A DNA stretch of 64,000 nucleotides from an uncultured Solirubrobacterales bacterium (GTDB lineage Bacteria; Actinomycetota; Thermoleophilia; Solirubrobacterales; JBBDJG01): positions 528,608 through 592,607 of the forward strand of contig CAVZDP010000005.1 of NCBI GenBank assembly GCA_963774075.1, in the 5' to 3' direction. Of the stretch, positions 8,957 to 64,000 are shown piece after piece. The notes beneath the pieces are model-generated. The model had not been told where the DNA came from and made no database searches. It worked only from the letters and a program-made list of their open reading frames with translations. Position 1 is the first letter of the stretch. Each line of letters starts with the position of its first letter. The position numbers and the translations under genes are program-made.

Positions 8957-9111
8957 TGGAGCGCACTCGCGAAAAGACCCTCACCGTGACGGTAAAGGAG
9001 GGCTGTGTCGTCTACCACGACGGCACCGGCTACGGGCCCGGTCAGACGTTCGAGCTCCCGGCCGCGGAGGCGCGCGCGCTGCTCGAGCAAGGGGTCGTGG
9101 AGAAAACCTGA
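8956..9111 (+). CDS. small hypothetical protein (head module)
   Basis: MERTREKTLTVTVKEGCVVYHDGTGYGPGQTFELPAAEARALLEQGVVEKT. The ATG overlaps the capsid stop (ATGA). It lies in the frame of the over-extended 7444-9111 track ORF. Confidence 0.35.
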   Translation: MERTREKTLTVTVKEGCVVYHDGTGYGPGQTFELPAAEARALLEQGVVEKT

Positions 9112-10056: not shown

Positions 10057-10061
10057 TGAAG

Positions 10062-10135
<74 letters not shown>

Positions 10136-44881: not shown

Positions 44882-44971
44882 ACCCCGGATCGAGCCGAGT
44901 AGCCGAATTTTCGATTAGCGACAAAGCACGCAAGCCCGAGGAAGGACACAGGGCGTATCCGCTCTAGCTAG

Positions 44972-45454
44972 ATGACCGTCACGTCCCCGTTCCCCAAGAT
45001 CTACCCGACGTCGCACAGGCCCACCGACCGCGGCGTGGACATCCTGCTGGTCGAGGACAACCCGGCCGACGTGCGCCTGACGCGAGAGGTACTCGAGGAC
45101 GGCGACGGCGCGACGCGGCTGAACGTGGTCGGCGACGGCGAGGAGGCCATGGCGTTCCTTCGCAAAGAGGGTCCCTATGCCCACTGTCCCCGCCCGAGCC
45201 TCGTGCTGCTGGACCTGAACCTGCCCAAGAAGGACGGGCGCGAGGTGCTCGAGGAACTCAAGTCCGATGACGCGCTCCGCCGCATCCCGGTGGTGGTGCT
45301 CACCACCTCGGGCGCCGAGTCCGACATCTCGCGCTCCTACGAGCTCCACGCCAATTGCTTCATAACCAAGCCCCTGGACCTGGACGATTTCTTCAGCGTC
45401 GTGCGGTCGATCAAGGACTTCTGGCTCGCAAGCGCGCGACTCCCCTCGGTCTGA
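44972..45454 (+). CDS. single-domain response regulator
   Basis: [24 protein letters not shown] and ANCFITKP. Lies directly downstream of the kinase. Confidence 0.85.
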
Positions 45455-45456
45455 GC

Positions 45457-47172: not shown

Positions 47173-47228
47173 TCTTTCACCTGGCCGGCGCACGGAGCGC
47201 CGGATCAGTGCTAGCAATCGGGGTAGGC

Positions 47229-47693
47229 ATGTCCGAGCGAAACGTCGAGCTCGTCCGCTCGCTCACGAAGTCGTGGAACAGCGTGGGTGATCCCTCGTTG
47301 CACGTCTACCATGCCGATGCCGAGTTCGACTTCAGCGGCTGGGATTTCGACATCCACGGCACCTTCCAAGGCCTGCCGGCGATCGGTGAGGCGCTCGGCT
47401 CCCTCGCGGACACCTGGGAGGAAATGCGGGTGGACCCACAGGAGTTCATCGACGCGGGCGACAAGGTCCTGTTCGTCGGCCGTTTCCTGGCCCGGCGGCG
47501 CGATACGGGCCTCGAGGTGAGCGACTCGGGCACCTGCGTCTTCACGTTCCGCGACGACAAGATCTCGCGCTTCGACCTCTACCGCGACCACGCCTCCGCG
47601 CTGGCCGACGCAGGCGTGAAACAGGCGGCGGGAGTATCTAGCCGCCTTCCGGCGGACAGCGTAAACTCCGCCTACAGAAAAACCCCGCGTTAG
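47229..47693 (+). CDS. SnoaL/NTF2-like protein (C-terminal tail reads through a repeat element)
   Basis: NVELVRSLTKSWNS...VLFVGRFLARRRDTGLEVSDSGTCVFTFRDDKISRFDLY. The last ~20 codons overlap repeat copy C and a terminator hairpin. Confidence 0.6.
   Translation: MSERNVELVRSLTKSWNSVGDPSLHVYHADAEFDFSGWDFDIHGTFQGLPAIGEALGSLADTWEEMRVDPQEFIDAGDKVLFVGRFLARRRDTGLEVSDSGTCVFTFRDDKISRFDLYRDHASALADAGVKQAAGVSSRLPADSVNSAYRKTPR
47633..47676 (+). repeat. REP-like hairpin motif, copy C (variant with a 12-nt insertion)
   Basis: GTATCTAGCCGCCTTCCGGCGGACA[GCGTAAACTCCG]CCTACAG shares both flanks and the hairpin with copies A and B. Confidence 0.45.
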
Positions 47694-47705
47694 CGGGGCT
47701 TTTCC
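47678..47705 (+). terminator. rho-independent terminator (CCCCGC-gtta-GCGGGG followed by CTTTT)
   Basis: A-tract, 6-bp GC stem, tetraloop and T-tract at the end of the 47229 gene. Confidence 0.55.
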
Positions 47706-47833
47706 GAGTGAGGACGGAAGCGAAGGCCAGGGAGCCTCCACTCCCGGCCCTTGTCCGTGGCGAGTAGCGTGCCAGAGCGCCCATCAAGCCCGCGTGAGGA
47801 TTGACGGCGAACTCCTGAAGATTTTATGAAGGG

Positions 47834-48513
<680 letters not shown>

Positions 48514-48517
<4 letters not shown>

Positions 48518-50199
48518 GCCGTCGTCGGTGCTCCTTCCGTAGTAACAGAGTCCCCGCTCGCAGGCTCCAGTGGCAGCTCGACGCTGAAGGTGGTCCCGGC
48601 CCCCAGGCCATCGCTTTCCGCCCACACACGTCCGCCGTTTGCCTCGATGAACCCCTTTACGATCGCCAGCCCGAGACCCGATCCCTGATGAGTGGCCTCG
48701 AGCTCGGGAGCCCGGTAGAAGGGCTCGAAGATCTCGTCGAGCTTGTCCGGGGCGAGCCCCGGCCCTCTGTCGACGATGCAGACGAGGAGGCGCTCGACCT
48801 CCTGGTCCACTTTCACCCGCACCGGGTGGCCGCCGGAGAAGCGGCTCGCGTTCTCGAGTAGGTTCGCGAACGCGCGCTCGAGCTGCGCCGCGTCGGCGAG
48901 CACGCCCGGAAGGTCCGGATCGATCTCGATTTCGAAGCCCTTGCCGTGGCCGTCGGTCTGGTAGAGGGCTGCCTGCAGGATCTCTTCGATCGAGCACGAC
49001 ATCTTCTTGGGTGCGGCCGCGCCGCCCTGAAGGCGCGAGAGATCCAGTAGCTTGTCGACCAAGCGGCTGAGGCGGGTCGCCTCCTTGACGATCACCGACG
49101 CCAGCTCCCGCCTCGACTCCTCCCCGATACTGGGCGACGCGCTCGACTCGCCGGCGGCCACGATGGCGGTCAGCGGCGAGCGGAGGTCGTGCGACACCGA
49201 GCGCAGGAGGGCGGTCTTCATCATGTCGCTCTGGCGAAGCACCTGCTCGGCCGCCCGCCGGTCCGTGACGTCTCGCAGGAGGGCGGTGAAGTAGACGGCG
49301 TCGCCCGCGCGCCAACTCGACAACGCGAGCTCGAGCGGAAATTCTGTGCCGTCCCCGCGCAGACCGGCGAGCTCGACGCGCTGCCCGATCACATGCGACT
49401 CGCCCGTCGCCAGGAACCGCTCGAACCCGTGGTCATGGGCCGCGTGGAAGCGTTCCGGCATCAGCATCTTGAGCGGCTCGCCGATCACGTCCGGAGAGGC
49501 ATGGCCGAAGATCTGCTCCGCCGCGCGGTTGAAGTAAGTGATGCGGCCCTTGGAGTCCGCCGAGACGATGGCGTCGACTGCGGTGTCCGCGATGGCTCGC
49601 AGCTGCTCCTCGCTTTGCCGGCCAGCCTCCTCGGCCTGCTTTCGCATCACGAGCGAGCCGATCTGCGCGGAGACCGCCGACACGAGGTCGATCAGGTGCT
49701 CGTCCTCCTCGCGCGGCTCCGCGACGAAGAAGACGAGCACGGCGACCACGAGCTCGCCGCTCAGCACGGGAACCGCCATGCCGGCGCCGATGCCGTACCG
49801 CTTCGCAAGCGAAGCGCGCAGGAACCTCGGGTCCGAGGCGACGTTACGCATCCAGACTGGCGTCTTGCTCTCGAGCGCGTGTCCCGGGATGCCGAGACTC
49901 TTCGGCACGCGCGTGCCAACCATGGAGGCGTCGAAACCCTCGAGCCGCGTAGAGGCCTCGTGCCAGACCGAGCTCAAGACCAGGTCCTCGCCGTCGCTGA
50001 GCCAGGCCTCGCCGATCGCCCAGCCCGTCGCCTGACAGAACTCCCTCAAGGTGAGCTCCATCGCAGCGTCCACCGTCTCGGCCGCGCCTACTGCTAGCGC
50101 GAGCTCCCGCGCCAGCGTCAGCTCACGGTGGAGCTGCTCGGTGATCTCTAGCTCGTTGGCCGTCGCCGGCCCTGTCCCCACGGGCCACTCCCATGACAT
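48514..50199 (-). CDS. cytoplasmic GAF-PAS sensor histidine kinase
   Basis: GAF-like N-terminus, a PAS domain (RAIADTAVDAIVSADSKGRITYFNRAAEQIFG), HisKA (SVSHDLRSPLTAI) and HATPase (NLLENASRF, DRGPGL, GSGLGLAIVKGF). Confidence 0.85.
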
Positions 50200-50289
50200 G
50201 CGTCGTTGATCCTCCCCGAATAAGTGTAAGGGGATAGACGATGCCTCGCCACCGGTTTTTCCGGCAGCTGGTACGGCTCGGAGAGGGCG

Positions 50290-50523
50290 TTAGCTGAGGC
50301 CCAGCGGTACCAACTCGCGCGGAGCGCGGCTGAAGCGGCTGCTGGGTGGCAGCGCGAGGGCCGGGTCAAGCTGCTCGCCCGTCTCTCCGCCGTCCGATCC
50401 CTTGCCCACGCCGAGCGGGGAAAGAGACGGCACGGGCCTGCGACCCGCTTCCCGATCCCGCCCTCCAAACGCCTCACGAGCCGAGAGGAATGCTACGTAC
50501 GGAAGAGTGCCAAGGTCTGACAT
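50290..50523 (-). CDS. candidate small protein upstream of the kinase
   Basis: 77-aa reading frame from the ATG at 50523, with GGGGAGGA 7 nt upstream. Its initiation region nearly duplicates that of the kinase. Third-position GC is lower than in neighbouring genes. Confidence 0.3.
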   Translation of the reverse strand: MSDLGTLPYVAFLSAREAFGGRDREAGRRPVPSLSPLGVGKGSDGGETGEQLDPALALPPSSRFSRAPRELVPLGLS

Positions 50524-50801
50524 GTCGGGATCCTCCCCGAAGTGAAACGAGTCTAAACGGCTGGAACTGGTGTCGAGCGGGGCGAGCGCCGCTCGGACAT
50601 CCACGGCGCTGCCCCGACGCGCGCTTCCCTGGCGACACTGGATGGTCCGTCGATGCCATCGTAGAACCGATCCGGCGCATCGTGGGCGGGTGGTCCGCCT
50701 CGGCGGCCGCACCCTGCGACGCTCGGTCTTGCCCCGCAAAAAGCAGCTCCAATCGCTAAACTGCGGCCCGTCCAGTTTCGGGGGGCTCACGTCGATGGGG
50801 C

Positions 50802-52805
50802 GTGGGGCCGTCCCGGCGCGATCTAGCCATCGGCGCCGGGTACATATCAGCGTTTGCCTCGCATGGCGGCGCGTCGACACAAGGGGGTCCCGTGGGGAGG
50901 GAGTCGTCACCTAGAGGTTTTGCCACCGTCGCTCGCCGACTTGGCGCAGTTCTCGTCGTCTTGGCGTTCACCGCCATCGCGGCCGCACCGGCCGCGGCCG
51001 CGCCGACGCACTATGTCGAGATGTCCGACGGCGCGAGCATCGCCATCAACGTGAAGGTGCCCGACCACTGCAACGCCGGAAATCCGTGTCCGACGTTCTA
51101 CGAGATGTCAGGATACGAGAGCGGCTCGGACGAGGGGCAGACTCCGGCGGGCCATCTCGCGGACGCGACAGGCATCCCGTTTCCGCTCCAGACGGGCACG
51201 CGCGCGGCGCACGCCGCTCGCGTCGACGACCGCTACGTGACCGTACTCGCGAGCGTCCGCGGGACGGGCTGCTCGTCGGGCGAGTTCGATGTCTTCAGCT
51301 GGCGCTCTGCGCTCGACGGCAAGGAGGTCATCGATAAGTGGATAGCCAAGCAGCCGTGGTCGAACGGCGACGTCGTGATCTTCGGCCACTCGTACAGCGG
51401 CTTGACCGGGATGTTGATCGCTTCGACGCGACCCGCACACCTGCGCGCCGTCACAGCGTCCGGCCTCTTCGGCGACGTCTACCGTGACATCGTCTATCCC
51501 GGAGGAGTCGCGAATTATGGCTTCCCACTCCTGTGGACGGGCGCCATACGTCCCGTCTACGACTTGGGCGGAGGGACCGCAGGCGGGGTCTATCCCGTCG
51601 AGGAGACGAGCGCACAGTGTGCAGCGAACCAGGCCGAGCGCTCGCGCACCGTCCTTGACGACCCGCTCATACACGGGCTCGACAACACCGACAACGAGTG
51701 GTACCGCTCGCGCTCGTCCGTCAACCACATAGGCAACATCACCGTGCCCGTCCACGTGACCGGCGCCTACCAGGACGAGCAGACCGGCGGCCGCGGCCCG
51801 ACGCACGTGTTCGACCGCCTGCCCACCACGGTCTCCAGACGCATAGTGCTGGTCAACGGCGAGCACGGCACGCAGACCGAGGACCACGTCTGGAAGGACC
51901 GCATCGCGTGGATGGACTACTGGATGCTCCGCAAGCAGACCGCCGACCTGGGCATCAAGACCGGTGTGGCCAACCTTGCGAGCACGTTCGGTCCCCGGGA
52001 GCGCGTAACGAGGACGTCACGGGTGATCCTGGGCTACCAGGGCGGCGGCAAAGCCGTCGGCGAGATCCGCTCCGACGGGTACCCGCTCGGCCAGACGCGC
52101 TTCACCGACGCCTACGTGACCGGAGCCGGGAAGCTGGCGTTCCAGCCCCCGCTTGCCAGCGGCTCGTCGACATGGGTGAACGGCTCCAGGCGCCAGTCGT
52201 ACGCGTACCAGACCGGCGTCAACACGGGCGGCGAGGTCTCGAGCCCGACCGGGCCGGACGAGGTCGAGCTGTCGATGAAGTTCAATCAGGCGACCGCGAT
52301 GGCGGGACCCATCACGGCGTCGCTGTTCGTCTCCACGACCGGGATCGACACCGAGCTGTTCGTGCAGCTCCTCGACCGCTCCCCGGACGGGACTCTGCTG
52401 TACCTCAACCGAGGAATGCTGCGCGCGAGCCACCGAGCGGTCGACCCGGCTGAGTCGCAGAAGACGGCGGACGGCCGCATCTACAGGCCGTGGCGCCCGC
52501 ACGAGGGGCGCGAGGTCATCGTCCCCGGCGCAGTGAACGAGTACCTGATCGACATCTTCCCGTTCGGGCACGTGTTCCTGCCCGGGCACGAGCTGGTCGT
52601 GAAGGTGCACGCCCCGCCGGCGGAGGACAACGACTACGCCTACGTTCAGGAGACGCCGCCAGGAGTGAACACGCTCCACTTCGGCCCAGTGACCCGGTCG
52701 CGGTTCACGCTGCCGACCGTTCCAATGAGCGAGGTGGTCGGGTTCGAGGCTCCGACGGGCCAGTGCCCGTACGCGTCCATGCGCTGCCTATCGGGCGGAG
52801 GCTAG
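50802..52805 (+). CDS. secreted CocE/NonD-family (S15 X-Pro dipeptidyl-peptidase-like) hydrolase
   Basis: Signal-like RRLGAVLVVLAFTAIAAAPAAAA, nucleophile elbow FGHSYSG and a C-terminal beta-sandwich region. The true start is probably the GTG at 50892, after AAGGGGG. Confidence 0.75.
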   Translation: MGPSRRDLAIGAGYISAFASHGGASTQGGPVGRESSPRGFATVARRLGAVLVVLAFTAIAAAPAAAAPTHYVEMSDGASIAINVKVPDHCNAGNPCPTFYEMSGYESGSDEGQTPAGHLADATGIPFPLQTGTRAAHAARVDDRYVTVLASVRGTGCSSGEFDVFSWRSALDGKEVIDKWIAKQPWSNGDVVIFGHSYSGLTGMLIASTRPAHLRAVTASGLFGDVYRDIVYPGGVANYGFPLLWTGAIRPVYDLGGGTAGGVYPVEETSAQCAANQAERSRTVLDDPLIHGLDNTDNEWYRSRSSVNHIGNITVPVHVTGAYQDEQTGGRGPTHVFDRLPTTVSRRIVLVNGEHGTQTEDHVWKDRIAWMDYWMLRKQTADLGIKTGVANLASTFGPRERVTRTSRVILGYQGGGKAVGEIRSDGYPLGQTRFTDAYVTGAGKLAFQPPLASGSSTWVNGSRRQSYAYQTGVNTGGEVSSPTGPDEVELSMKFNQATAMAGPITASLFVSTTGIDTELFVQLLDRSPDGTLLYLNRGMLRASHRAVDPAESQKTADGRIYRPWRPHEGREVIVPGAVNEYLIDIFPFGHVFLPGHELVVKVHAPPAEDNDYAYVQETPPGVNTLHFGPVTRSRFTLPTVPMSEVVGFEAPTGQCPYASMRCLSGGG

Positions 52806-53092
52806 ATCTGGGCTAGCCGTCGATGCCTGGAGCCAGGTGTCCTCGACCACCCTGTCGGGGACACCGCGGGCCTATCAGTACTGCACTTCATGGGGCCGTA
52901 CATAACTTGGCTCATCCCGGCCCGCCGGCCTAAAGAGTAGGCAACGAATGTCCGATGGGTCCTTGGAGACCGCCAAGCACGTCTGCTGGCGCTGGGCAGA
53001 GCATGTTGCCGGGGCGGTAATCGCCAGTTCAGACGTGCATGTCTATGCGTTTACCGGACACTGACGAGCGCCTCACAGGTGGTGGATAGCTC

Positions 53093-55114
53093 GTGGGATC
53101 GATTCGAGTCGCCCGCATTCAAGCGTCTCCCCTCAGCGCTCTCGACACTTATCTGCTGACGGTCACGCTCGTTGGCTTAGCTCTGCTCGCGACCGTTGCC
53201 GTCGAGGGCGCCTCGAGCTTCCTGCCGACAGCTCCGCCCGAGTTCTGGGCGTTCGCCGGTCTCGTCGTCGTTGGCCAGATGCTGACGATCAAGGTTCGCG
53301 GTTACGACGAGATCACGAGCTCGACCGCCTTCGTGTACGCGCTCCTGCTGCTGTTCGGCACGACGGCGGCCGTGCTCGCGCAGATGGTCTCGAGCCTCCT
53401 GACCAGCGTGCGTGATCGCAAGCCGGTGCTGGAGGCGAGCTTCGTGCTCGCCCACCAGACGATCTCCGTCGTGGTCGCCGGCACTCTGCTGTCGTCCTTG
53501 ACCGACCTACCCCGGGCCGACGCGTCTCCCCCGATCGAGCCGTTCGAGGTCCCGGTGCTGTTCGTCGCCGGTGGAGCGTATTTCTTTACCACCAACCTCT
53601 TGGCCTACGTGGGCCCGGGGATCATCAAGGGGGAGTCGCTGCGAGCGATTCTTCACCGCGATCTGACGCTGCAGGTGCTGACCGCGGCGGTCTTCATCAG
53701 CCTGGCTCCGATCATCCTCATCGCGGCGCATCTCGACCTCTCTCTCTGCCTGCTCCTCCTGCTCCCGATGATCGCCATCTACAAGGGCGGGCGGGAGGCG
53801 GTCATAAACGAGCACCGCTCCACGCACGACCTGCTCACGGGCCTGCCGAACCGGGTGCTCTTCGCAGACCGCATCGATCAGGCGGTGAAGCTTGCGGAGC
53901 GCGACGGCAGGTCGGTCGCGGTCCTCTTCATGGACCTCGACCACTTCAAGGAGATCAACGACACGCTCGGTCATCGCCATGGCGACCTCGTCCTGCGCAC
54001 GCTCGGCCCCCGGCTCGGGGAGGTGCTGCGCGACAGCGACACGGTCGCGAGACTCGGAGGCGACGAGTTGGGCGTCCTGCTTCCCGAGGCCACTCCAGAG
54101 CAGGCGTGCCACGTCGCCAGCAAGATCCTGGAGGCTCTCAAGCAGCCGCTCCGAACGGAGGGGCTGACGTTGCAGGTGGGCGCGAGCATCGGCATTGCGT
54201 GCTACCCCACGCATGGTGATGACGTCACCAAGTTGCTTCAACGCTCGGATGCGGCCATGTCAGTGGCCAAGCAGAACCGCAACGGCTACGAGGTCTACAG
54301 CGACGACCGCGAAACCCAGAGCGCGCAGCGGGTGCTGCTCGCAAGCGACCTGCGCCACGCGGTCGACGCGGGAACGTTCGTGCTCGAGTACCAGCCCCTG
54401 ATGGACCTTCGGTCGCGAAAGGTGGTCGGCGTCGAAGCCCTCGCACGCTGGATGCACGAGGAGCGCGGCTTGGTAGCACCGGGGGAGTTCATCCCCATCG
54501 CCGAGCAGATCGGGGTCATCAAGCCTCTTACGATGCGGCTTCTCGGCCAGGCCATCGACCAGTGGCGGACCTGGGAGGCGGAGGGCGCGGACCTCGTGCT
54601 GGGAGTGAACATCTCCGCCCGCCACCTGATGAGCCGCGACTTCGCCCAGGAGATCGAGGAGTTGCTCGAGTCCTCGGGCATCGCGCCGCCTCGCCTCAAG
54701 CTCGAGATCACCGAGACCACGATCATGGCGGACCCTGGCCTTGCCGAGGAGATCGTGCGTGCGCTCAGCGCGCTCGGGGTGAAGCTGGCGATCGACGACT
54801 TCGGGACCGGCTACTCGTCCCTTGCCTATCTGAAGCGGCTTTCGGTCGACGAGCTCAAGATCGATCGCTCCTTCGTCGTGGACATGCACGAGAGCGAGAG
54901 CTCCGCCGTCATCGTCCGCAGCATCATCCAGCTCGCGAACAACCTCGGCCTCGAGGCCGTCGCGGAAGGAGTGGAGAACGCGGCAGCCCTAGAGGCGCTC
55001 GACGATCTCGGGTGCAAGATGGCCCAGGGTTACTTCGTGAGCCGGCCGCTCGGCGGAGACGATGTCGTCCCGTGGCTCGCGCAGTCCTCAGCGACGCTCG
55101 GCTCGCCTCTCTAG
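53093..55114 (+). CDS. membrane sensor with GGDEF-like and EAL domains
   Basis: About 230 aa of hydrophobic helices. The cyclase domain carries the variant motif RLGGDELGV. The EAL domain has GVEALARW and DDFGTGYSSL. Confidence 0.85.
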   Translation: MGSIRVARIQASPLSALDTYLLTVTLVGLALLATVAVEGASSFLPTAPPEFWAFAGLVVVGQMLTIKVRGYDEITSSTAFVYALLLLFGTTAAVLAQMVSSLLTSVRDRKPVLEASFVLAHQTISVVVAGTLLSSLTDLPRADASPPIEPFEVPVLFVAGGAYFFTTNLLAYVGPGIIKGESLRAILHRDLTLQVLTAAVFISLAPIILIAAHLDLSLCLLLLLPMIAIYKGGREAVINEHRSTHDLLTGLPNRVLFADRIDQAVKLAERDGRSVAVLFMDLDHFKEINDTLGHRHGDLVLRTLGPRLGEVLRDSDTVARLGGDELGVLLPEATPEQACHVASKILEALKQPLRTEGLTLQVGASIGIACYPTHGDDVTKLLQRSDAAMSVAKQNRNGYEVYSDDRETQSAQRVLLASDLRHAVDAGTFVLEYQPLMDLRSRKVVGVEALARWMHEERGLVAPGEFIPIAEQIGVIKPLTMRLLGQAIDQWRTWEAEGADLVLGVNISARHLMSRDFAQEIEELLESSGIAPPRLKLEITETTIMADPGLAEEIVRALSALGVKLAIDDFGTGYSSLAYLKRLSVDELKIDRSFVVDMHESESSAVIVRSIIQLANNLGLEAVAEGVENAAALEALDDLGCKMAQGYFVSRPLGGDDVVPWLAQSSATLGSPL

Positions 55115-55988: not shown

Positions 55989-56387
55989 ATGAGCAATGTC
56001 GAAAGCATTCAAGCGTTGTACGAGGCCTTCGGGCGCGGCGACGTACCCGCCATTCTCGACCCGCTCGCCGACGATGTTCAGTGGGACCAGGACGCGCCTG
56101 GATACGGGATACCGATTTACGAACCGGGTACGGGCAAGGACCACGCGCAGCGCTTCTTCGAAAACGTTCAGAGGGATCTCGAGTTCCTGCGATTCGAGCC
56201 GAGGAACTTCCTCAGCGGAGGAAACCAGGTCGCCGTGCCGATCGACATCGAGGTCAAGGTGAAGCCGACCGGCAAAGTCGTTGAAGCGCTCGAGGTCCAC
56301 TTGTGGACGTTCGGCGACGACGGCAAGGTGAGCCGCTTCTTCCACTGCATCGATCGCCACGCCTTCGTCTTGGCCTACGGCCTTTGA
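55989..56387 (+). CDS. SnoaL/NTF2-like protein
   Basis: SIQALYEAFGRGDVPAILDPLADDVQW and the late VHLWTFGDDGKVSRF. Confidence 0.65.
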   Translation: MSNVESIQALYEAFGRGDVPAILDPLADDVQWDQDAPGYGIPIYEPGTGKDHAQRFFENVQRDLEFLRFEPRNFLSGGNQVAVPIDIEVKVKPTGKVVEALEVHLWTFGDDGKVSRFFHCIDRHAFVLAYGL

Positions 56388-58582
56388 GTTGAACCGGTGA
56401 GCGGGGCCCTCGGGTGCTCGCCGGTCTCCTCGTGCAGCGCGCCGCCGCCCGCGGCGGTCGACGGCCACCAGATCTTGTCCCCGATCAGCTCCACCGCGGC
56501 CGGGACCATGATCGTGCGCACGATGAAGGTGTCGAGCAGGATCCCGAGCGCGACCATGAAGCCGAGATCGAAGGTGTAGGTGACAGGGAGAGTCATCAGC
56601 ACCGAGAAGGTGCCGGCGAGGATGATCCCGGCGCTGGTGATCACAGGGCCCGTGGCGGAGAGCGCGCGCAGCATGCCCTCGCGGGTGCCGTGGCGCCGTG
56701 CCTCCTCGCGCACGCGCGCCATCAGGAAGATCGTGTAGTCGATCCCGAGCGCGACAAGGAAGATGAAGGCAAAGGTTGGGATCGAGGCGTCGAAGCCAGC
56801 GTCGCCGACGACGAACCGTATGAACAGGACAGAGAGCCCGAGGGTGCAGAGGAAGGAAAGCAGCACGCTGGCGATCAGCACCAGCGGGGCGACCAGCGCC
56901 CGCAGCAGGATCGCGAGGATGATCGCGATCACCAGCAGCGCAATCGGCGCGATCAGGCGCAGATCGGATTCGACCGCCTGGTCGAAGTCATATTGGATTG
57001 CGGTGCCGCCCCCCACCAGGGCGGTCACGCCCGGGCCCAGGTCATCGACGCTGTCGCGGATGTCGGGCACGACGTTGAGCGCCGGCTTGGTATAGGGGTC
57101 GTTTTCGAGCACGACGTCGATCGTGGCCATGCTGCCGTCCTTGGAGGTCCTGCCGGTAGGCGTTGCCGACGCCACGCCCGGTACACGCTCCAACGCTCGT
57201 TCAGCGGCCGCGATGTCCTCAGGCCTGACCTTGCCGTCCTCGCGCTCGACGAGAACGGTGGTCGGGGCGAGCAGGCCCGCGGGGAACGACTTCTCGAGCA
57301 ACTCGAACGCCTCGACGCTTTCCACCGACTTCTTGAAGAAGGTCGTCGTCGAGTAGTCGACCTTGTAGGCGAGCAACCCGAGCGAGCCGGCGACGAAGGC
57401 GATCACGGTCACGGCCAGGGCGAGCGCGGGCCGGGCGAGGACGCGATCGCCGATCCGCCTCCACACACCCTGGCGAACCTCCAAGGCATGCTCGGGGTCG
57501 AACTCCACCGTGGAGCGCCGCGGCCAGAAACCGGTGCGTCCGAAGATCGTCAGCAGCGCCGGCAACAGGGTGAGCCCGGCCACCATCCCGCAGGCGACGC
57601 CGATCGCCGCCACCGGCCCAAGCGTGGAGGTGAGGCGGGCATCGGCGAGCGCCAGCGTGAGCATCGCGAGCGTGACGGTGAGACCGCTGGCGAGGATCGT
57701 CGGGCCGGTGCGCGCGAGCGCGCGCGCCATCGCGTCGTGCTTGTCCTCGAGCCGGCGCAGCTCCTCGCGATAGCGGGACACGAGCAGCAGGCAATAGTCA
57801 GTCCCCACGCCGAACATGAGGACGACGAGGATCGTCGTCCCATTGGAGGAGACCGTCGCGCCCGATTCTGCGTACAGGTAGACGAATGCCGTTGCCACCG
57901 TGTACGCAAAGAAGACGACGAGCAGCGGCGTCAGCGCGACCAGGACGGCCCGGTAGATCGCGCCCAGCAGCACCAGCACCAGGAGCACCGTGGCCAGGAG
58001 CAGCTTCGTGTCTAGCTCGCCGAAGACCTCCTCCGCGTCGGCGCTGAAGCCAAGGTCGCCCGTGAGGAGGATTCGCATCCCGTCGCTCTCGTCCCCGGTG
58101 ACCTCGCGCACCTTCTTGCCCCAGTCCGCCGCCTTGTCGAAGTCGGTGGGGACGATCAGAACCGTGTAGGCGACGTCTCCCTCGGGGGAGACGAGCGTCT
58201 TCGGAGCTCCGCGCGCGAACGGAACGGTGGGCGGCTGGGCGAGGGGAAGATCCTCGCCGGGCAGGGCATCGAGCGTCTGAGCGTGCTGGGCGATCGTGCG
58301 CTTGTCGGCCTGGGTCAGGCCCCCCTCGCGCTGGTAGACGATCAGCCCCTGTGTGGTCTCGCCCGCGTCGAACTGCTCGTCGAGCAGCTTGACCACGTCC
58401 GTCGACTCGGCGCTCTCGGGTAGGAAGGAGGTGGTGTCGTCCTCGGTCTTGTCGGAGAGCTTCGAGCCGAGCGGCATCAGCGCGGCGAAGGCGACGATCC
58501 ATATAGCGAGCACCACCCACTTGGTGCGGCGGCCGGCGATGAAGGATGCGAGAGGGCTCATGCGGCGAACACCGTGCGACAA
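56375..58582 (-). CDS. MMPL-family (RND superfamily) membrane transporter
   Basis: 735 aa with two six-helix hydrophobic blocks and MMPL-typical FGVGTDYCLLLVSRYREE and ALGIDYTIFLMARVREE segments. Confidence 0.9.
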   Translation of the reverse strand: MSHGVRRMSPLASFIAGRRTKWVVLAIWIVAFAALMPLGSKLSDKTEDDTTSFLPESAESTDVVKLLDEQFDAGETTQGLIVYQREGGLTQADKRTIAQHAQTLDALPGEDLPLAQPPTVPFARGAPKTLVSPEGDVAYTVLIVPTDFDKAADWGKKVREVTGDESDGMRILLTGDLGFSADAEEVFGELDTKLLLATVLLVLVLLGAIYRAVLVALTPLLVVFFAYTVATAFVYLYAESGATVSSNGTTILVVLMFGVGTDYCLLLVSRYREELRRLEDKHDAMARALARTGPTILASGLTVTLAMLTLALADARLTSTLGPVAAIGVACGMVAGLTLLPALLTIFGRTGFWPRRSTVEFDPEHALEVRQGVWRRIGDRVLARPALALAVTVIAFVAGSLGLLAYKVDYSTTTFFKKSVESVEAFELLEKSFPAGLLAPTTVLVEREDGKVRPEDIAAAERALERVPGVASATPTGRTSKDGSMATIDVVLENDPYTKPALNVVPDIRDSVDDLGPGVTALVGGGTAIQYDFDQAVESDLRLIAPIALLVIAIILAILLRALVAPLVLIASVLLSFLCTLGLSVLFIRFVVGDAGFDASIPTFAFIFLVALGIDYTIFLMARVREEARRHGTREGMLRALSATGPVITSAGIILAGTFSVLMTLPVTYTFDLGFMVALGILLDTFIVRTIMVPAAVELIGDKIWWPSTAAGGGALHEETGEHPRAPLTGSTQRP

Positions 58583-58676: not shown

Positions 58677-59084
58677 TCAGTCGGGTAGCTGTTCCGACAG
58701 GCCCACGGCTTCGAGGGCCTCCACTCGATCCCAGAAGAACTCCAGGTAGAAGATCCTTCCCTTGCGCACCGTGTGGATCGTCGTCAAGTCCATGTTCGCT
58801 TCAGGACCACGGCCTGCGCCACGCCAGATGAATCTCACGACAACGTGGTCGGCGGCGTCGATGAAATCGCTAATCGGTTCCAGCGCGTCGGCGTCGAAGG
58901 TCTCGCGCTGTTGCTCCCACTGACGCAGGACGGCCTCGCGACCCACGATGGGCCCCGGCTCCGGCCAACCCTCGGGCATCCGGAGGATGACGTCGGGGTC
59001 GTACACCTCACGAAGCGCATTCATGTCCCCCGCGTTCCATGCCGCGAACGCGGCCTTCACAATCTCCACGTTCTCCTGCGACAT
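58677..59084 (-). CDS. SnoaL/NTF2-like protein
   Basis: NVEIVKAAFAAWNAGDMNALREVYDPDV and VVVRFIWRGAGRG...VRKGRIFYLEFF. Confidence 0.65.
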   Translation of the reverse strand: MSQENVEIVKAAFAAWNAGDMNALREVYDPDVILRMPEGWPEPGPIVGREAVLRQWEQQRETFDADALEPISDFIDAADHVVVRFIWRGAGRGPEANMDLTTIHTVRKGRIFYLEFFWDRVEALEAVGLSEQLPD

Positions 59085-59349: not shown

Positions 59350-60156
59350 CTAACGGTCGCGAACCGTCTCTGTCGGCTCCGCGCGGTGAACTTCGCGACT
59401 CGCCTTCGGCGCTCCGCAGCAGATCATGTAGAGCGCTGTCTCGTCCGGCTCGAGGCCGAGCAGGCCGTTCAGCTCGTGGTCGTAGAAGCCGCCGATCGGA
59501 ACCACTCCGAGGCCAAGCGCAGCAGCGCAGAGGCAGAAGTTCTGCCCGAGGTGGCCCGCCTCGAGCAAGATGTGCCGGTAGCCGCGCTGCTCGTATCTCC
59601 ACATCGTCCGATCGAAGACGGCGGTGATGATGACGACGATGTTTGCGGCCTCTACCGTTTCTCGGTGGATCGCTACGTCGGCGAGCTGTGAATGCGTGAG
59701 ATCCCGATGCAATGCCACCAGCTCGTGCTCCCGAACCGAATAGTGATAGAGACCGTCGGGAATATCGGTAACCGAGCGGGTCGCTACGTAGACCTCGAGC
59801 GGATACTGCCCACCCGCTGAGGGAAAGGGCCTCTCCGCAACCGCCTCGCCTCCAGTCTCGTGATACGCGCGAACGCCAAAGCTTGCGTGAAGGAGGCGTC
59901 CCGCTACTTGGCTCTCAATCGCCGTCGGCTCGAAGAGGCGGGTTGACTTCCTATCCCGAAGCAGTTGTCCGAGCGAAGCGTCCAGCTCGAAATCTCGCCC
60001 AGGTAGCGCGTAGCGCTCATCACCCGGATGGATACGAAACGGCGGCGGGGCGTCGGCCAGGTCGGGGTCGTCGTGTCTGCGTCCGGAGCTGCCTCGCACT
60101 AACTTGGAGTGTTCGTGATAGACGCGTGCGATGTCGGGGTCGACGTACCTAGTCAT
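59350..60156 (-). CDS. SagB-type FMN-dependent dehydrogenase (azoline oxidase type)
   Basis: RDRKSTRLF, PFPSAGGQYPLEVYV and the nitroreductase-fold C-terminus RHILLEAGHLGQN...VPIGGFYD. Starts 21 nt after the cyclodehydratase stop. Confidence 0.8.
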   Translation of the reverse strand: MTRYVDPDIARVYHEHSKLVRGSSGRRHDDPDLADAPPPFRIHPGDERYALPGRDFELDASLGQLLRDRKSTRLFEPTAIESQVAGRLLHASFGVRAYHETGGEAVAERPFPSAGGQYPLEVYVATRSVTDIPDGLYHYSVREHELVALHRDLTHSQLADVAIHRETVEAANIVVIITAVFDRTMWRYEQRGYRHILLEAGHLGQNFCLCAAALGLGVVPIGGFYDHELNGLLGLEPDETALYMICCGAPKASREVHRAEPTETVRDR

Positions 60157-60177
60157 CGACGTACTACCGATACCCGG

Positions 60178-62535
60178 TCACCCAACAGGGTGTGGATCGG
60201 GATTGAGCTGCCCAGCCGCCAGGGCCTGCAGTCGTCGGTTGCCGAGTGGCTCCTGGCGAAAGCCGAAAGAGATTTGCTGGATACCCGCGCCGACCGCGCG
60301 CGCGACCCGGAAGGGACTCTCGGCTACGTCGGGGGCGGTTACATCGACGACGGCGAGCCGGAGCTCGGATCGCTCCGAAAGCGCGTTCAGACCAGACAGC
60401 GAGGCTATCGGTGGCTCTGGCAGCGAGCAAAGTTCGACCGGTTGTCTCGCGGTCTTCCTCCAGAAGTCGAGCGATTCAGCTCGTTCGGAGGGGACGTAGT
60501 AGGTCATGTGGTCGATCTCGCTGCGAACCTCCTCCGGGCTTCCGGGGATCTCCACGTTGCCTGCTCGCATGGCACGGCGCAGGCTGAGACCTGCCTGTGC
60601 CTGCTCCAGCATCGCCTTTCTCACCGCCGCTACCGGACTTAGGTGTGAGCCCATGCCAACGACTACTCCTGGCCAATGCTCGCCGTCCCCGGAAGAAACG
60701 CAGGCCACAACCGAGATAGGGGCCGCGACATCTAGGAGATAGAACTCTAGGGGGCCCGCATGGCGTTCGAGCTGACGGAGAGCCTCGGCAGCGACGCCTT
60801 CCAGGCTCTCCCGGACTGCCAGAGGCCGTGGTGGAGACATCGAGAGCCACGTCAGCGTAAAGCTGTCGCGCTCGAGCAGCTCAAGCGCAGCTCGCGAAGC
60901 CGCATCGTCGATGCTCGCTCCCGCGGCAAGACCACTCGTCGTGACGGCGCAGAAGGTTTCGGCGGCCGGTGCAGGGTAGTGCAGGTACGCCACGAGGGCA
61001 GGCACCCAAACCGGCGCGCCGTCGTCGAGCCACCGGCCCCGAACCCAGTCGATCGGTCGACCAGGATCGAAACGGGCGTACGGGAAGTCGGGGTCGGCGT
61101 ACTGCTCATCCGAATACAGGGTTAGGTCGCGCGGGTCGAGCACATCGCCGTCGAGCTCATCAAGCGCGGCTCTACACACCGTTTCCGGCCATTGACAGGC
61201 CGAGTAGCGCTCGATTGCCTCTCCGACGGCGGAGAGCGCCGCATCAACCCTCGTGAGGCCTTTGCCGAATCCGAGCTCCGGTTGCCATTCACGGTGTCGA
61301 GTCTGACTGTAAGTGGACAAGATCGCGTAAGAGAAGAACGGAAGCTGCGGCTCGTTGACCTTCGGCCTGGGGACAGCCAGCCTGTTCACGATGCCGACAC
61401 GCGAGTCGACACATCCGTGCAGGAGATCGCGAAGCTCCCCGGGTTCTGTGACCCTGTCGAGATTCGGGGCCTTCCTTTCTTGTCGCGTCTCGACGGGCCT
61501 CTGGGCCCCCGTTATGGACGGATCGCCCGCAGGCGGCGCTGACGGCGAGCCTGCTCGGGACCAGACCTGCGCTTGCCCGCAGATCTCGCACCACGGAACC
61601 CGCACGACTGTGTGGAGTGCAGATTCAGGGTCAATCAGGTCGTGGATAAGTACGCGACCGACGAGCGGCGATGCGCCGGCGACGAGAAACTTCACTGCTT
61701 CGAGGGCAACGAGCTGCCCCACCAGTGGGGGCATCGACGCCAGGTACGCGCGCGGGCGTAACGGCGCAGGATTCTGAAGCACAGCCTCTTGGAAGTTGCG
61801 TTCATCCTCCGGCTGAGAGACGTTCGCCGCCTGCCGCAGCCGGAAGCAGTTCCAGCAGGCGGTCTGCCCTGGGATCACGAGCGGCCCGACGATCGCCTCC
61901 CTTCCCTGCAGGTAGCCGGACAGGGAGCGGGCTCCAGCCTCATGGCAGATCCGAGCAAGAGTAAGCCAGGCCTTGAGCTCATCTGGCGCGAGCGCTCCGA
62001 TCACGAGACTGCACTCATCTCCGGGCAGATTCAGCTCCTCAAATGGCCCCGTCACTAGCTCAGTCGAAGCTGCTCTGTGGCTGAGGACGTCGGCCAGCGC
62101 CTCGACCCGTGGCCTACCGCAATCGCCCGACGAAAAGACGCGGCTCCCGAGCAGATCGTCCTCGCCTACGAGACCGTCGTCGAAAAGGTGGAGGTGGCCG
62201 ACCGCGGAGGCTGCAAGCTCAGAGGCGAGGACAACGCCCCACGGCTCCAAGCCAACAACCACGACGCGCGCCCGCCGCAGCACTTCCATTTGGTCGTTGC
62301 CTTGACCACTCCAGGCCGCGAGGAACCGCTCTTGCGCGCGCCAAAGCGAGTCCCCCTCGCCTACCCGCTCCACGAAGCCCTGTTGCTCGAGGTTCGCAAG
62401 GAGCTCGATTACGGAATCTGCGTCGTACTCCGGCAGGTGCGTCGCGATCTCCTCGGCACCAAGGCTGCCGTCGAGCAATGGGAGGAGCGACTTGGCAGCA
62501 TCGACGTCTTCGCCCTCGAGGCGAAGCATCGCCAA
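60178..62535 (-). CDS. fused RiPP cyclodehydratase: N-terminal wHTH-like segment, E1/ThiF-like domain and YcaO domain
   Basis: E1-like part ARVVVVGLEPWGVVLASELAASAVGHLHLFDDG with QTACWNCF. YcaO part GFGKGLTRVDAALSAVGEAIERYSA, CAVTTSGLAAGAS and AALELLERDSFTLTW. The start is TTG at 62535 or ATG at 62529. Confidence 0.8.
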   Translation of the reverse strand: MAMLRLEGEDVDAAKSLLPLLDGSLGAEEIATHLPEYDADSVIELLANLEQQGFVERVGEGDSLWRAQERFLAAWSGQGNDQMEVLRRARVVVVGLEPWGVVLASELAASAVGHLHLFDDGLVGEDDLLGSRVFSSGDCGRPRVEALADVLSHRAASTELVTGPFEELNLPGDECSLVIGALAPDELKAWLTLARICHEAGARSLSGYLQGREAIVGPLVIPGQTACWNCFRLRQAANVSQPEDERNFQEAVLQNPAPLRPRAYLASMPPLVGQLVALEAVKFLVAGASPLVGRVLIHDLIDPESALHTVVRVPWCEICGQAQVWSRAGSPSAPPAGDPSITGAQRPVETRQERKAPNLDRVTEPGELRDLLHGCVDSRVGIVNRLAVPRPKVNEPQLPFFSYAILSTYSQTRHREWQPELGFGKGLTRVDAALSAVGEAIERYSACQWPETVCRAALDELDGDVLDPRDLTLYSDEQYADPDFPYARFDPGRPIDWVRGRWLDDGAPVWVPALVAYLHYPAPAAETFCAVTTSGLAAGASIDDAASRAALELLERDSFTLTWLSMSPPRPLAVRESLEGVAAEALRQLERHAGPLEFYLLDVAAPISVVACVSSGDGEHWPGVVVGMGSHLSPVAAVRKAMLEQAQAGLSLRRAMRAGNVEIPGSPEEVRSEIDHMTYYVPSERAESLDFWRKTARQPVELCSLPEPPIASLSGLNALSERSELRLAVVDVTAPDVAESPFRVARAVGAGIQQISFGFRQEPLGNRRLQALAAGQLNPDPHPVG

Positions 62536-62610
62536 GTCTGAACGCAGAAGGATGCCCTCGCTAGTGGGGACGACGATCGCGGCGAGCTTCAGGCGAGAGG
62601 CGGGCGTAGA

Positions 62611-62721
62611 TCATCCTCCCGACGAAAACGAAAGGCTCAAAACCGATCTCGACGGCGACACCAGCGTCACGGGGTGAGCGTGACCGACAACCGCCGCCGC
62701 GACGGTGCGCGTGCTGGACAT
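62611..62721 (-). CDS. speculative 36-aa Ser-rich ORF just upstream of the cyclodehydratase
   Basis: MSSTRTVAAAVVGHAHPVTLVSPSRSVLSLSFSSGG. Its TGA is in frame with the downstream cyclodehydratase ORF. No SD. Confidence 0.15.
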   Translation of the reverse strand: MSSTRTVAAAVVGHAHPVTLVSPSRSVLSLSFSSGG

Positions 62722-62823
62722 CGCGGCCAAGTGTAAGTGCGCGCCCGCCCCGCGCGCTGCCCGCGCTAATTCGCAGGACCAGCGCTGGCTAGTAGCGGTG
62801 GAGAGCCAGGCGGCTAAAGCGAG

Positions 62824-63120
62824 TTAGCCCGGCGTGATACCTGGGGGCGGCTTAAAGCAAGACGGCTCTGGACTCCCGAGGCAGCCTGGCGCTGGCAGCC
62901 CCGGCCAACGCCCCGCGAAAAACTTCGAATCCGAGAACGGAGGCACGTCCAGGTGCCCGATTGGGTGTGGTCCGAAAGTCGGATCGTTGAATGGCGGGGG
63001 TTTGGCGCACTCGGTCGGCGTAACACCGCCCTGAGCGGCGGGCGCCGCTGCCATCCCCAACGCCGCGCTTACCACGGTCGCAGAGATCATGAGTCGCTTC
63101 TTGGAGTTCTTGGGCGGCAC
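62824..63120 (-). CDS. RiPP precursor-like small secreted Pro-rich protein, paralog 3
   Basis: GTG start 6 nt after AGGAGG. MPPKNSKKRLMISATVVSAALGMAAAPAAQG, then ...KPPPFNDPTF...VPPFSDSKFF...PEPSCFKPPPGITPG. Confidence 0.7.
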   Translation of the reverse strand: MPPKNSKKRLMISATVVSAALGMAAAPAAQGGVTPTECAKPPPFNDPTFGPHPIGHLDVPPFSDSKFFAGRWPGLPAPGCLGSPEPSCFKPPPGITPG

Positions 63121-63144
63121 AGCTCACCTCCTGTGAATTGGCAG

Positions 63145-63417
63145 CTAGACGGGCTCGATACCGGGCGGTGGCTTTGCGCAGCTCGGTTCGGGATGCGCGG
63201 GCGCCTTCGGGAAAAACTTCGGATCCGAGAACGGAGGCACGTTTAGATGCCCGACTGGCGTTGGCTGGAAGCTCGGATCTTGGAATGGCGGCGGTTTGAT
63301 GTGCCCGACCGGCACGATGATGGCCTCGGCTGCCGGCGCCGCCGCTGCCATCCCCAAAGCCGCGCTCACCACGGTCGCGGAGATCATGAGTCGCTTCTTG
63401 GAGTTCTTGGGTGGCAT
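63145..63417 (-). CDS. RiPP precursor-like small secreted Pro-rich protein, paralog 2
   Basis: ATG after ACGAGG. The first 26 aa are identical to the other two, and the body ends in HPEPSCAKPPPGIEPV. Confidence 0.7.
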   Translation of the reverse strand: MPPKNSKKRLMISATVVSAALGMAAAAPAAEAIIVPVGHIKPPPFQDPSFQPTPVGHLNVPPFSDPKFFPKAPAHPEPSCAKPPPGIEPV

Positions 63418-63447
63418 GCTTACCTCGTGTGAAGAGCTAGTTAAGGG

Positions 63448-63735
63448 TTAGACGGGCTCGATACCGGGCGGCGGCTTCAAGCAGCTCGGGGCCGGATGCG
63501 CGCAGCTCGTCGGGTGTGGCCAGCGCCCTTCGAAGAACTTCGGATCCGAGAACGGAGGCACGTTCAGATGCCCGACTGGCTCTGGTTGGAAGCTCGGATC
63601 ATTGAACGGCGGCGGTTTGGCGTGCCCGATCGGCGTGACCTGAGCATCGACTGCCGGCGCCGCTGCCATTCCCAACGCCGCGCTCACCACGGTCGCGGAG
63701 ATCATGAGTCGCTTCTTGGAGTTCTTGGGTGGCAC
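63448..63735 (-). CDS. RiPP precursor-like small secreted Pro-rich protein, paralog 1
   Basis: GTG start 6 nt after AGGAGG. The first 26 aa are identical to the other two, and the body ends in PTSCAHPAPSCLKPPPGIEPV. Confidence 0.7.
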   Translation of the reverse strand: MPPKNSKKRLMISATVVSAALGMAAAPAVDAQVTPIGHAKPPPFNDPSFQPEPVGHLNVPPFSDPKFFEGRWPHPTSCAHPAPSCLKPPPGIEPV

Positions 63736-63817
63736 AGCTCACCTCCTGTGAGCACGCTGACCTCACCGGTTCTGCAAACGCGAGTAGATCAGCGGTCGAA
63801 AATCAAGTCAAGTACGG

Positions 63818-63984: not shown

Positions 63985-64000
63985 GCCAACACTCAGACTC

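Follow-up and report, generated by a model that had tools for sequence, protein, structure and literature searches.

A compact YcaO-SagB module preceded by Sec-like, proline-rich candidate precursors in an uncultured Solirubrobacterales bacterium

The 64,000-nt stretch of contig CAVZDP010000005.1 analyzed here, referred to below as the window, comes from an uncultured Solirubrobacterales bacterium, a soil actinobacterium, and carries a compact module whose genes all lie on the minus strand: three tandem genes for small proline-rich proteins (95, 90 and 98 aa) are followed by a gene for a fused cyclodehydratase and then by one for a SagB-type dehydrogenase. The enzyme pair is ordinary machinery of the linear azol(in)e-containing peptide (LAP) or thiazole/oxazole-modified microcin (TOMM) type, and the module as a whole probably represents a LAP system that places one to four thiazoles on peptides exported by the general secretory (Sec) pathway. 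What is shown is how the enzymes are identified and built, how a leader-binding domain is predicted to fold, that small genes and enzymes strictly co-occur, that the leader is conserved and that accessory genes are absent; the substrate relationship, the sites and type of modification, Sec export and the ACG start of the fusion gene are inferred. The initial annotation of this DNA had placed five minus-strand open reading frames (ORFs) between positions 59350 and 63735, and all of them are present at those coordinates in the ORF listing. DnaE2 encoded in the window is 78% identical to its counterpart in a Solirubrobacterales metagenome-assembled genome, and the matches that rank next belong to such genomes of Solirubrobacterales and Thermoleophilaceae, which places the host among the uncultured or little-studied Thermoleophilia (Actinomycetota).

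The fused cyclodehydratase and the SagB-type dehydrogenase

The central enzyme had been described as a fusion of an E1-like and a YcaO domain, and this assignment is borne out by the Pfam ThiF and YcaO matches (Table 1) as well as by two NCBIfam models that score above their cut-offs, TIGR03604 for SagD-type maturases (231.6 bits against 219.25, residues 424-783) and TIGR03882 for TOMM leader-binding proteins (66.9 bits against 36.9). Its best solved relatives in a search of the PDB are TruD and LynD, followed by MusD, while MccB and MoeB also match the E1/ThiF-like domain. The protein contains CxxC...CxxC pairs (ACWNC, CEIC) and terminates in ...LNPDPHPVG, the consensus C-terminus of its homologs being ...LNPHPHPLA. 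We take the NPDPHPVG tail to be the PxPxP-type C-terminal motif of azoline-forming YcaOs, a Pro-rich motif that, in work of Dunbar et al. from 2014, is said to be typical of such enzymes. The identification of the last gene as a SagB-type dehydrogenase also stands, since its 268-aa product matches TIGR03605 with 152.8 bits against a cut-off of 78.4; the solved relatives retrieved for it from the PDB are 3eo7, CyaGox/ThcOx and McbC. Counting the window, readable DNA is available for five loci of this clade (the window, L001, L002, L003/L004 and L006), and the SagB of the window is 73% identical to its counterpart in L003 and 74% identical to the fragment preserved in L001.

The N-terminus of the fusion, which the initial annotation had seen as winged helix-turn-helix-like, is predicted to fold as a leader-binding RiPP (peptide made by the ribosome and modified after translation) recognition element (RRE). 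The AlphaFold2 model of the extended N-terminus reaches a predicted local distance difference test (pLDDT) score of 85-93 over 80 residues arranged as beta-beta-beta-alpha-alpha-alpha. Its top Foldseek match is the RRE of PbtF bound to a leader fragment (8t19, target template modeling (TM) score 0.72), with further matches to LynD, TruD, McbB and lasso-peptide B1 proteins. Of the predicted strands, the first three (model residues 2-18) are encoded upstream of the first TTG codon of the frame, so that the RRE is complete only if translation begins at an ACG located further upstream.

The frame is open ahead of this TTG and encodes ...SRLKLAAIVVPTSEGILLRSD..., a stretch conserved in L001, L002, L003 and L006, with synonymous codon differences between the loci in the 24 codons that precede the TTG. 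No ATG, GTG or TTG lies ahead of the conserved N-terminal stretch in the window, L001, L003 or L006. The arrangement GGGAGG-N7-ACG is common to the window, L003 and L006; at the codon in question L002 has ATG, a 46%-identity homolog (L005) has GTG and L001 has TTC. The ACG at 62607-62605, 24 codons upstream of the TTG, gives an intact frame of 809 codons, and this conserved codon is the most likely start of the fusion gene. The 785-aa ORF reported initially is a genuine one as regards its frame, and its start probably has to be moved, with a likely length of 809 aa. Gene callers have truncated the N-terminus of all fusions of the clade (P0007, 783 aa; P0008, 753 aa; P0009, 751 aa). An in-frame TGA is found two codons 5' of the ACG (window 62620-62605, minus strand), and since short upstream ORFs with unrelated sequences end at this TGA near the ACG, coupling by termination and reinitiation would be conceivable. 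A programmed frameshift from an ATG that overlaps the TGA (MIYARLSPEA...) was discarded, as it has no equivalent in L001 or L003.

The small proline-rich proteins and their linkage to the enzymes

The initial description of the small proteins as precursors of 90-98 aa, with a long Pro-rich mature part and one to three Cys, agrees with what is encoded (Table 1). The three proteins are 75-84% identical in pairwise comparisons and their mature parts contain 27-31% Pro. Relatives were sought with a single sequence, with a word-indexed profile against 5.8 billion cluster representatives (about 15 billion sequences) and by exhaustive HMMER searches of 1.84 billion representatives, leading to a family of only eight members: the three of the window and P0002, P0005, P0006, P0127 and P0128, all five of them metagenomic. 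Scans with profile-derived patterns over 185,579 species genomes, 241 million metagenome records and IMG/VR revealed no further members, and the sole extra HMMER match, P0129, was rejected as an FN3-repeat surface protein with a compositional match only. Neither a meaningful Pfam or NCBIfam match nor a match in a profile search of PDB sequences was obtained for the small proteins. AlphaFold2 predicts them to be disordered and without secondary structure (pLDDT 57.7, predicted TM score 0.14).

All eight members begin with an n-region of charge +3 to +5 (three to five Lys/Arg), followed by a hydrophobic core of 15-17 residues with a mean Kyte-Doolittle value of about 1.9 and by an AxA-type site of the form [A/V/S]-x-[A/G]. 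The initial annotation had called the proteins secreted while only implying a signal; it is the first 31 residues or so that are built like a Sec signal peptide. The segment that follows comprises 58-77 aa with 27-32% Pro, one to four Cys and zero to four His, and in each member [C/H]-x-x-P-P-P-[F/G] occurs two to four times as a repeat. The C-terminus reads C-x-K-P-P-P-G-I-[ET]-P-[VG] in seven of the eight, with GIEPV in six of them and GITPG in small gene 3. An invariant Ser-Cys had been noted in this motif. Across the family only the Cys holds, being the last and the sole invariant one, and the residue before it may be S, N, P, T or E; it is only within the window that the Ser is always kept. 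Cys and His are found in shared alignment columns (HHCHCCCC in column 40), and members with more of the one tend to have fewer of the other, the Cys and His numbers per member being 4,0; 4,1; 3,0; 3,2; 3,3; 2,4; 1,4 and 1,3.

A functional relationship between the small proteins and the enzymes is suggested by their co-occurrence, which is strict: a small gene stands directly upstream of the fusion enzyme in five of five loci with readable DNA, and no homolog of the small proteins was found apart from YcaO/SagB enzymes, as a check proposed with the initial annotation required. In L001 the small gene is followed by the fusion and a SagB fragment, in L003 and L004 by the fusion and SagB, and in L002 and L006 by the N-terminus of the fusion at the contig end, so SagB is present after the fusion wherever the contig is long enough. 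L006 starts with the tail of another small gene, and tandem copies are found in this locus and in the window. The surroundings are otherwise dissimilar. The window module is flanked by a tRNA-Val gene, SnoaL-like genes and an MMPL transporter, L001 by an IS3-type transposase fragment (53-352), and L003 by an extracytoplasmic function (ECF)-type sigma factor and a serine recombinase (7204-8706); L004 diverges from L003 right after SagB. Because the flanks differ in this way, the small gene or genes, the fusion and SagB appear to travel as one module, and no protease, transporter or tailoring gene is common to the compared loci. The lower GC content of the module (0.645 versus 0.68 for the whole window), together with the nearby IS3-type transposase fragment and the serine recombinase, suggests that it is horizontally mobile. 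Carriage by a plasmid or a phage was also considered and is not supported, the best plasmid match being 34% identical.

One further contig deserves separate mention. P0006 (JGI 3300067032) is the most repeat-rich member of the family (107 aa, four Cys), and after a gap of 426 nt its contig contains two overlapping ORFs of 95 and 143 aa without Pfam matches, which may correspond to the N-terminal part of the fusion enzyme with a frameshift in it.

A second line of evidence comes from the way in which the small genes have diverged. Over the first 31 codons, synonymous changes equal or exceed non-synonymous ones in 15 of 15 pairs and exceed them in 14, while in the core non-synonymous changes predominate in 13 of 15 pairs. 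For small gene 1 against its L001 counterpart, the synonymous and non-synonymous changes are 8 and 3 in the leader and 10 and 22 in the core. Purifying selection acts more strongly on the leader segment than on the remainder of the protein. A conserved leader joined to a variable core is the usual RiPP pattern, whereas in typical secreted proteins it is the signal peptide that drifts fastest, the opposite of what is seen here.

The closest enzymes outside the clade place these observations in an evolutionary frame. Among the 120 closest relatives of the fusion only two are close (67% and 61% identity), after which identity drops to 46-47%. The tier at 40-47% is a large family of fused cyclodehydratases from metagenome-assembled genomes of Thermoanaerobaculia, Gemmatirosa, Chloroflexota and others. 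It shares with the window the order of fusion and SagB, the RRE pattern M.R[IV]RL...LLRSDL...L.G.DV and a precursor gene directly upstream. It differs in its hydrophilic leader, its Cys-rich core and a STAND/TPR regulator, none of which is found in the window clade. At 46% identity, the three loci examined (L005, L087 and L088) all carry a classical precursor family directly upstream of the enzymes, whose leader (ELIEL.N.VK.LT) is hydrophilic and helical and whose core is rich in Cys, with GMPPCREGCGMP or GMPPCR(S)EGCGMP repeats and a CCCRxCRSCC ending. A STAND/TPR/guanylate-cyclase-like regulator of about 873 aa follows SagB in all three. Since these loci have Cys-rich precursors, the window clade would have swapped a classical precursor for a Sec-like Pro-rich one, and from this comparison it appears to be an offshoot with a switched substrate. 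The precursor genes of this tier, located at about 7730-8000 in L005, 828-1139 in L087 and 2558-2926 in L088, belong to a family that itself looks undescribed.

Gene layout, regulatory elements and neighboring genes

Table 1. Features of the module on the minus strand of the window.
Feature	Coordinates	Strand	Details
Small gene 1	63448..63735	-	95 aa; GTG start; leader MPPKNSKKRLMISATVVSAALGMAAAPAVDA; 64-aa Pro-rich part, 2 Cys, 4 His
Small gene 2	63145..63417	-	90 aa; same leader; 58-aa Pro-rich part, single Cys (EPSCAKPPPGIEPV), 3 His
Small gene 3	62824..63120	-	98 aa; same leader; 67-aa Pro-rich part, 3 Cys, 2 His
Fused TOMM cyclodehydratase	60178..62607	-	809 aa from the probable ACG start at 62607; 785 aa from the first TTG at 62535
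RRE (leader-peptide recognition) domain, predicted	62353..62607	-	about residues 1-85; AlphaFold2 and Foldseek
E1/ThiF-like domain	61627..62313	-	PF00899, residues 75-303 (785-aa numbering), 2.1e-19, 70.1 bits
YcaO domain	60292..61266	-	PF02624, residues 424-748 (785-aa numbering), 4.2e-59, 200.9 bits
SagB-type flavin mononucleotide (FMN)-dependent dehydrogenase	59350..60156	-	268 aa; begins 22 nt after the fusion stop; TIGR03605, PF00881
Promoter-like element, putative, 5' of small gene 1	63783..63811	-	TTGACT, 17 nt, TCTACT
Spacer from the last small gene to the enzyme gene	62608..62823	-	216 nt; ends with Shine-Dalgarno sequence GGGAGG (62620-62615) and in-frame TGA

Each of the small genes is preceded by a strong Shine-Dalgarno sequence, as initially annotated, which is CACAGGAGGTGAGCTGTG in two of them and CACGAGGTAAGCATG in the third. 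The promoter-like element 5' of small gene 1 aligns with -35 hexamers (TTGAC[TC]/GTGGAC) and TAnnnT-like -10 hexamers found 5' of the small genes in L001, L002, L003 and L006; a scan with the strict sigma-70 consensus makes no call at this element. A perfect 20-bp palindrome, TGTCATCCGATCGGATGACA (window 63837-63818, minus strand), ends 6 nt 5' of the -35-like TTGACT of this element and may be an operator; L001, L002, L003 and L006 do not share it.

The spacer ahead of the enzyme gene shares conserved blocks with its L003 counterpart; it is shorter in L001 (about 25 nt) and in L002 and L006 (about 120 nt each). Two candidates within it were considered. An attenuator or structured RNA finds no support, given that the predicted folds do not surpass those of shuffled sequences (z -0.97 and -0.70), with neither an Rfam match nor a terminator-like site. 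A Ser-rich precursor, a 39-aa ORF at 62730-62611 ending in ...SLSFSSGG that looked conserved in L003, was rejected, as it is absent from L001 and L002; the Gly-Gly-stop ending shared by the window and L003 arises because the Shine-Dalgarno sequence GGGAGG is followed by TGA.

Directly downstream of the module lies the tRNA-Val gene (59214-59143), and the module sits 5' of it, which is not the side where islands usually integrate. Just past this tRNA gene, an MMPL-family transporter is encoded between two SnoaL-like small proteins (55989-56387, plus strand; 56375-58582 and 58677-59084, minus strand), an arrangement that is probably unrelated to the module because it is not common to the other loci. 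An S15-family X-Pro dipeptidyl peptidase (50802-52805, plus strand) is encoded 7 kb from the module; its proximity to genes for Pro-rich peptides is probably a coincidence, as unrelated genes intervene and the other loci have no counterpart. A dense run of signaling genes (41405-55114) encodes a histidine kinase of 1158 aa with multiple PAS domains, a pair of GGDEF-EAL proteins, of which one has a receiver domain, and a GAF-PAS kinase; the maximal ORFs of this kinase and of a response regulator overlap. Finally, an HK97-family prohead protease (TIGR01543) and an HK97 major capsid protein (TIGR01554) are joined in one 555-aa ORF (7444-9111, plus strand) that adjoins a tRNA-Met gene (10061-10135) and could be a prophage remnant or another capsid-derived element.

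Proposed mechanism, rival readings and relation to known systems

In the mechanism that we favor, a single promoter would drive strongly translated precursor genes, and the weak ACG start of the enzyme gene would leave the precursor in excess over the enzyme. The N-terminal RRE would grip the precursor, most likely via its nearly invariant N-terminal stretch KKRLMISATVVSAALG, and the YcaO domain would use ATP to cyclodehydrate one to four Cys, typically in a P-x-C context and including the invariant Cys of the C-terminal region, to thiazolines. These would then be oxidized to thiazoles by the SagB flavoprotein, with a shift of -20 Da per site. The same N-terminal segment would subsequently act as a Sec signal, so that the modified and unfolded peptide would be exported by the general Sec machinery and cut by signal peptidase I after the AxA-type site. 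As Sec and signal peptidase I would serve these steps, a protease or exporter gene in the module would not be needed. The product would be a disordered Pro-rich peptide of 58-77 aa with few thiazoles, and the main candidates for its extracellular role are metal binding and antagonism of other microbes.

Several observations weigh against this proposal. The N-terminal segment looks like a Sec-like signal peptide as judged by sequence features only, and its hydrophobic core would make an unusual ligand for the RRE, the leaders used by the nearest enzyme relatives being hydrophilic and helical. Modification in the cytoplasm must also compete with Sec targeting, and in bufferins, Sec-signal RiPPs discussed below, the signal peptide is dispensable for modification (PMC11626156). 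As to the core, a survey of the TOMM landscape looked for at least 45% Cys/Ser/Thr in the C-terminal half of precursors (Cox et al. 2015, PMC4603692), compared with 11.1-14.6% in the three window proteins and 39% in a precursor of the 46%-identity tier. Unusually for cyclodehydratases, the position ahead of each Cys varies greatly and can hold Pro. In SagB, a W-R-Y motif stands where cyanobactin oxidases have W-K-Y, a conservative change of Arg for Lys that is found in 3eo7 too. Moreover, the five loci come from related uncultured organisms with 61-67% enzyme identity, so part of the co-occurrence could be inherited synteny, and only 265 nt 5' of the first small gene lie inside the window. The low Cys/Ser/Thr content is no bar to substrate status, because the same precursor rules also miss cyanobactin and NHLP (nitrile hydratase leader peptide) precursors (PMC4603692). 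It does confirm the initial impression that the small proteins are unlike known TOMM precursors, with 11-15% against at least 45% and with the nearest other enzymes using Cys-rich precursors.

Three alternatives stand beside this mechanism. It is unlikely that the small proteins are unmodified secreted Pro-rich proteins, such as an immunity, carrier or surface factor, with the true precursor unrecognised or elsewhere. Their poverty in Cys/Ser/Thr and their variable Cys contexts would fit such a role, heterocycloanthracin precursors are known to be encoded away from their enzymes (PMC4603692), and the analyzed DNA ends at window position 64000. Yet the module holds no other conserved small ORF, the family is nowhere found without the enzyme, and it is typical of precursors to be present in tandem copies whose leader is conserved and whose core varies. 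Numbers of one, three or four Cys also suit modification better than disulfides in a protein that an actinobacterium secretes. Even if the small proteins are the substrates, their N-terminal segment might be a hydrophobic RiPP leader instead of a Sec signal, in which case removal and export would be trans-encoded or the product cell-associated. The intact predicted RRE of the fusion speaks for this possibility, as does the fact that the leader is better conserved than ordinary signal peptides and under stronger selection than the core, which is the pattern expected of an RRE-recognised leader, and some TOMM clusters, the mobilisins, consist of B, C and D genes alone (PMC4603692). We nevertheless regard it as distinctly unlikely, given that the full tripartite signal anatomy with a small-x-small site is kept in eight of eight members even where adjacent residues vary, and that no transporter or protease recurs in any locus.

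Highly improbable is a decaying cluster whose fusion gene would either have become a pseudogene or yield an enzyme that lacks part of its N-terminus and cannot bind a leader, an idea that arises because the gene has no canonical start codon ahead of the RRE. The lack of ATG, GTG or TTG before the conserved strands in four loci and the truncated gene calls for P0007, P0008 and P0009 are what one would expect from decay. They are outweighed by the intact 809-codon frame, by the protein-level conservation of its first 24 codons with synonymous differences, by the Shine-Dalgarno sequence and ACG kept in three loci with ATG (L002) or GTG (L005) at the same codon elsewhere, and by the complete RRE into which the extended N-terminus is predicted to fold. 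A variant closer to the favored mechanism, possible but doubtful, would make the module a YcaO-made counterpart of the bufferins: the Sec signal would double as the RRE-recognised leader, so that export would wait for modification, and thiazoles would replace His imidazoles in [thiazole/His]-x-x-PPP-[F/G] units that bind a metal or other ligand. A hint in this direction is the swap of Cys and His at equivalent repeat positions and the trade-off between their counts.

Returning to the LAP reading, the closest enzymatic parallels are the fused C-D LAP/TOMM systems with a SagB-type partner (GodD/GodE of goadsporin; LynD/TruD with ThcOx/CyaGox), in which the same RRE, E1-like and YcaO domains are combined with an FMN dehydrogenase and the precursor genes lie directly upstream of the enzymes. 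The window system differs from them in the Sec-like signal of its candidate precursors, where LAP/TOMM precursors have a hydrophilic leader, in a core of 58-77 aa with about 30% Pro, predicted disorder and one to four Cys, and in a module without protease, transporter or tailoring gene. The initial annotation had raised the possibility of an undescribed RiPP class; the type of candidate precursor is indeed new, as would be the route of export, and the claim of a class is overstated because the enzymology is of the LAP/TOMM kind.

With regard to the precursor, bufferins are the only experimentally supported precedent of a Sec-signal RiPP. [quoted passage not shown] The window system would resemble bufferins and oxazolins in the Sec-like signal of its candidate precursors, a part of about 60-70 aa that would be exported, the few conserved Cys that would become five-membered heterocycles, the precursor gene in first position and the lack of a dedicated exporter or leader protease. 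The chemistry is different, since bufferins depend on unrelated MNIO enzymes while the window system would form thiazoles with an ATP-dependent YcaO enzyme and a flavoprotein. In addition, bufferins are widespread and predicted to fold as small proteins, whereas the window family has eight members and its peptides are predicted to be disordered. Neither an MNIO (DUF692) nor a DUF2063 partner is present in the module, whose only enzymes are the YcaO fusion and SagB; the likeness is therefore functional only, and the window system is not a bufferin.

The closest described concept, by description, is the mobilisin group, an actinobacterial TOMM group delineated bioinformatically that has B, C and D functions only and a fused cyclodehydratase (Cox et al. 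2015, PMC4603692). Compared by description only, mobilisins share with the window a nearby short precursor found by hand and a core poor in Cys/Ser/Thr; neither a signal peptide nor a Pro-rich core is mentioned for them (PMC4603692). None of the 120 closest relatives of the fusion is named as Mobiluncus or Rhodococcus, although most of them carry no source name. In the literature searched, no YcaO system with a Sec-signal precursor was found described.

If the favored reading is true, the window would contain the first case of a YcaO/azole RiPP that relies on the general Sec pathway for the export of its precursor, and a long, disordered, Cys-poor and Pro-rich peptide that receives only one to a few azoles. 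The idea of Sec-signal RiPPs would then extend beyond the bufferins made by MNIO enzymes, and standard TOMM precursor finders, which look for Cys/Ser/Thr-rich C-termini, would be missing real substrates. The conserved ACG start would represent a small case of non-canonical initiation that may set the ratio of enzyme to substrate. Together, the small gene, the fusion and SagB would offer a minimal three-part module for studying how an RRE recognises a signal peptide and how modification is timed with respect to export.

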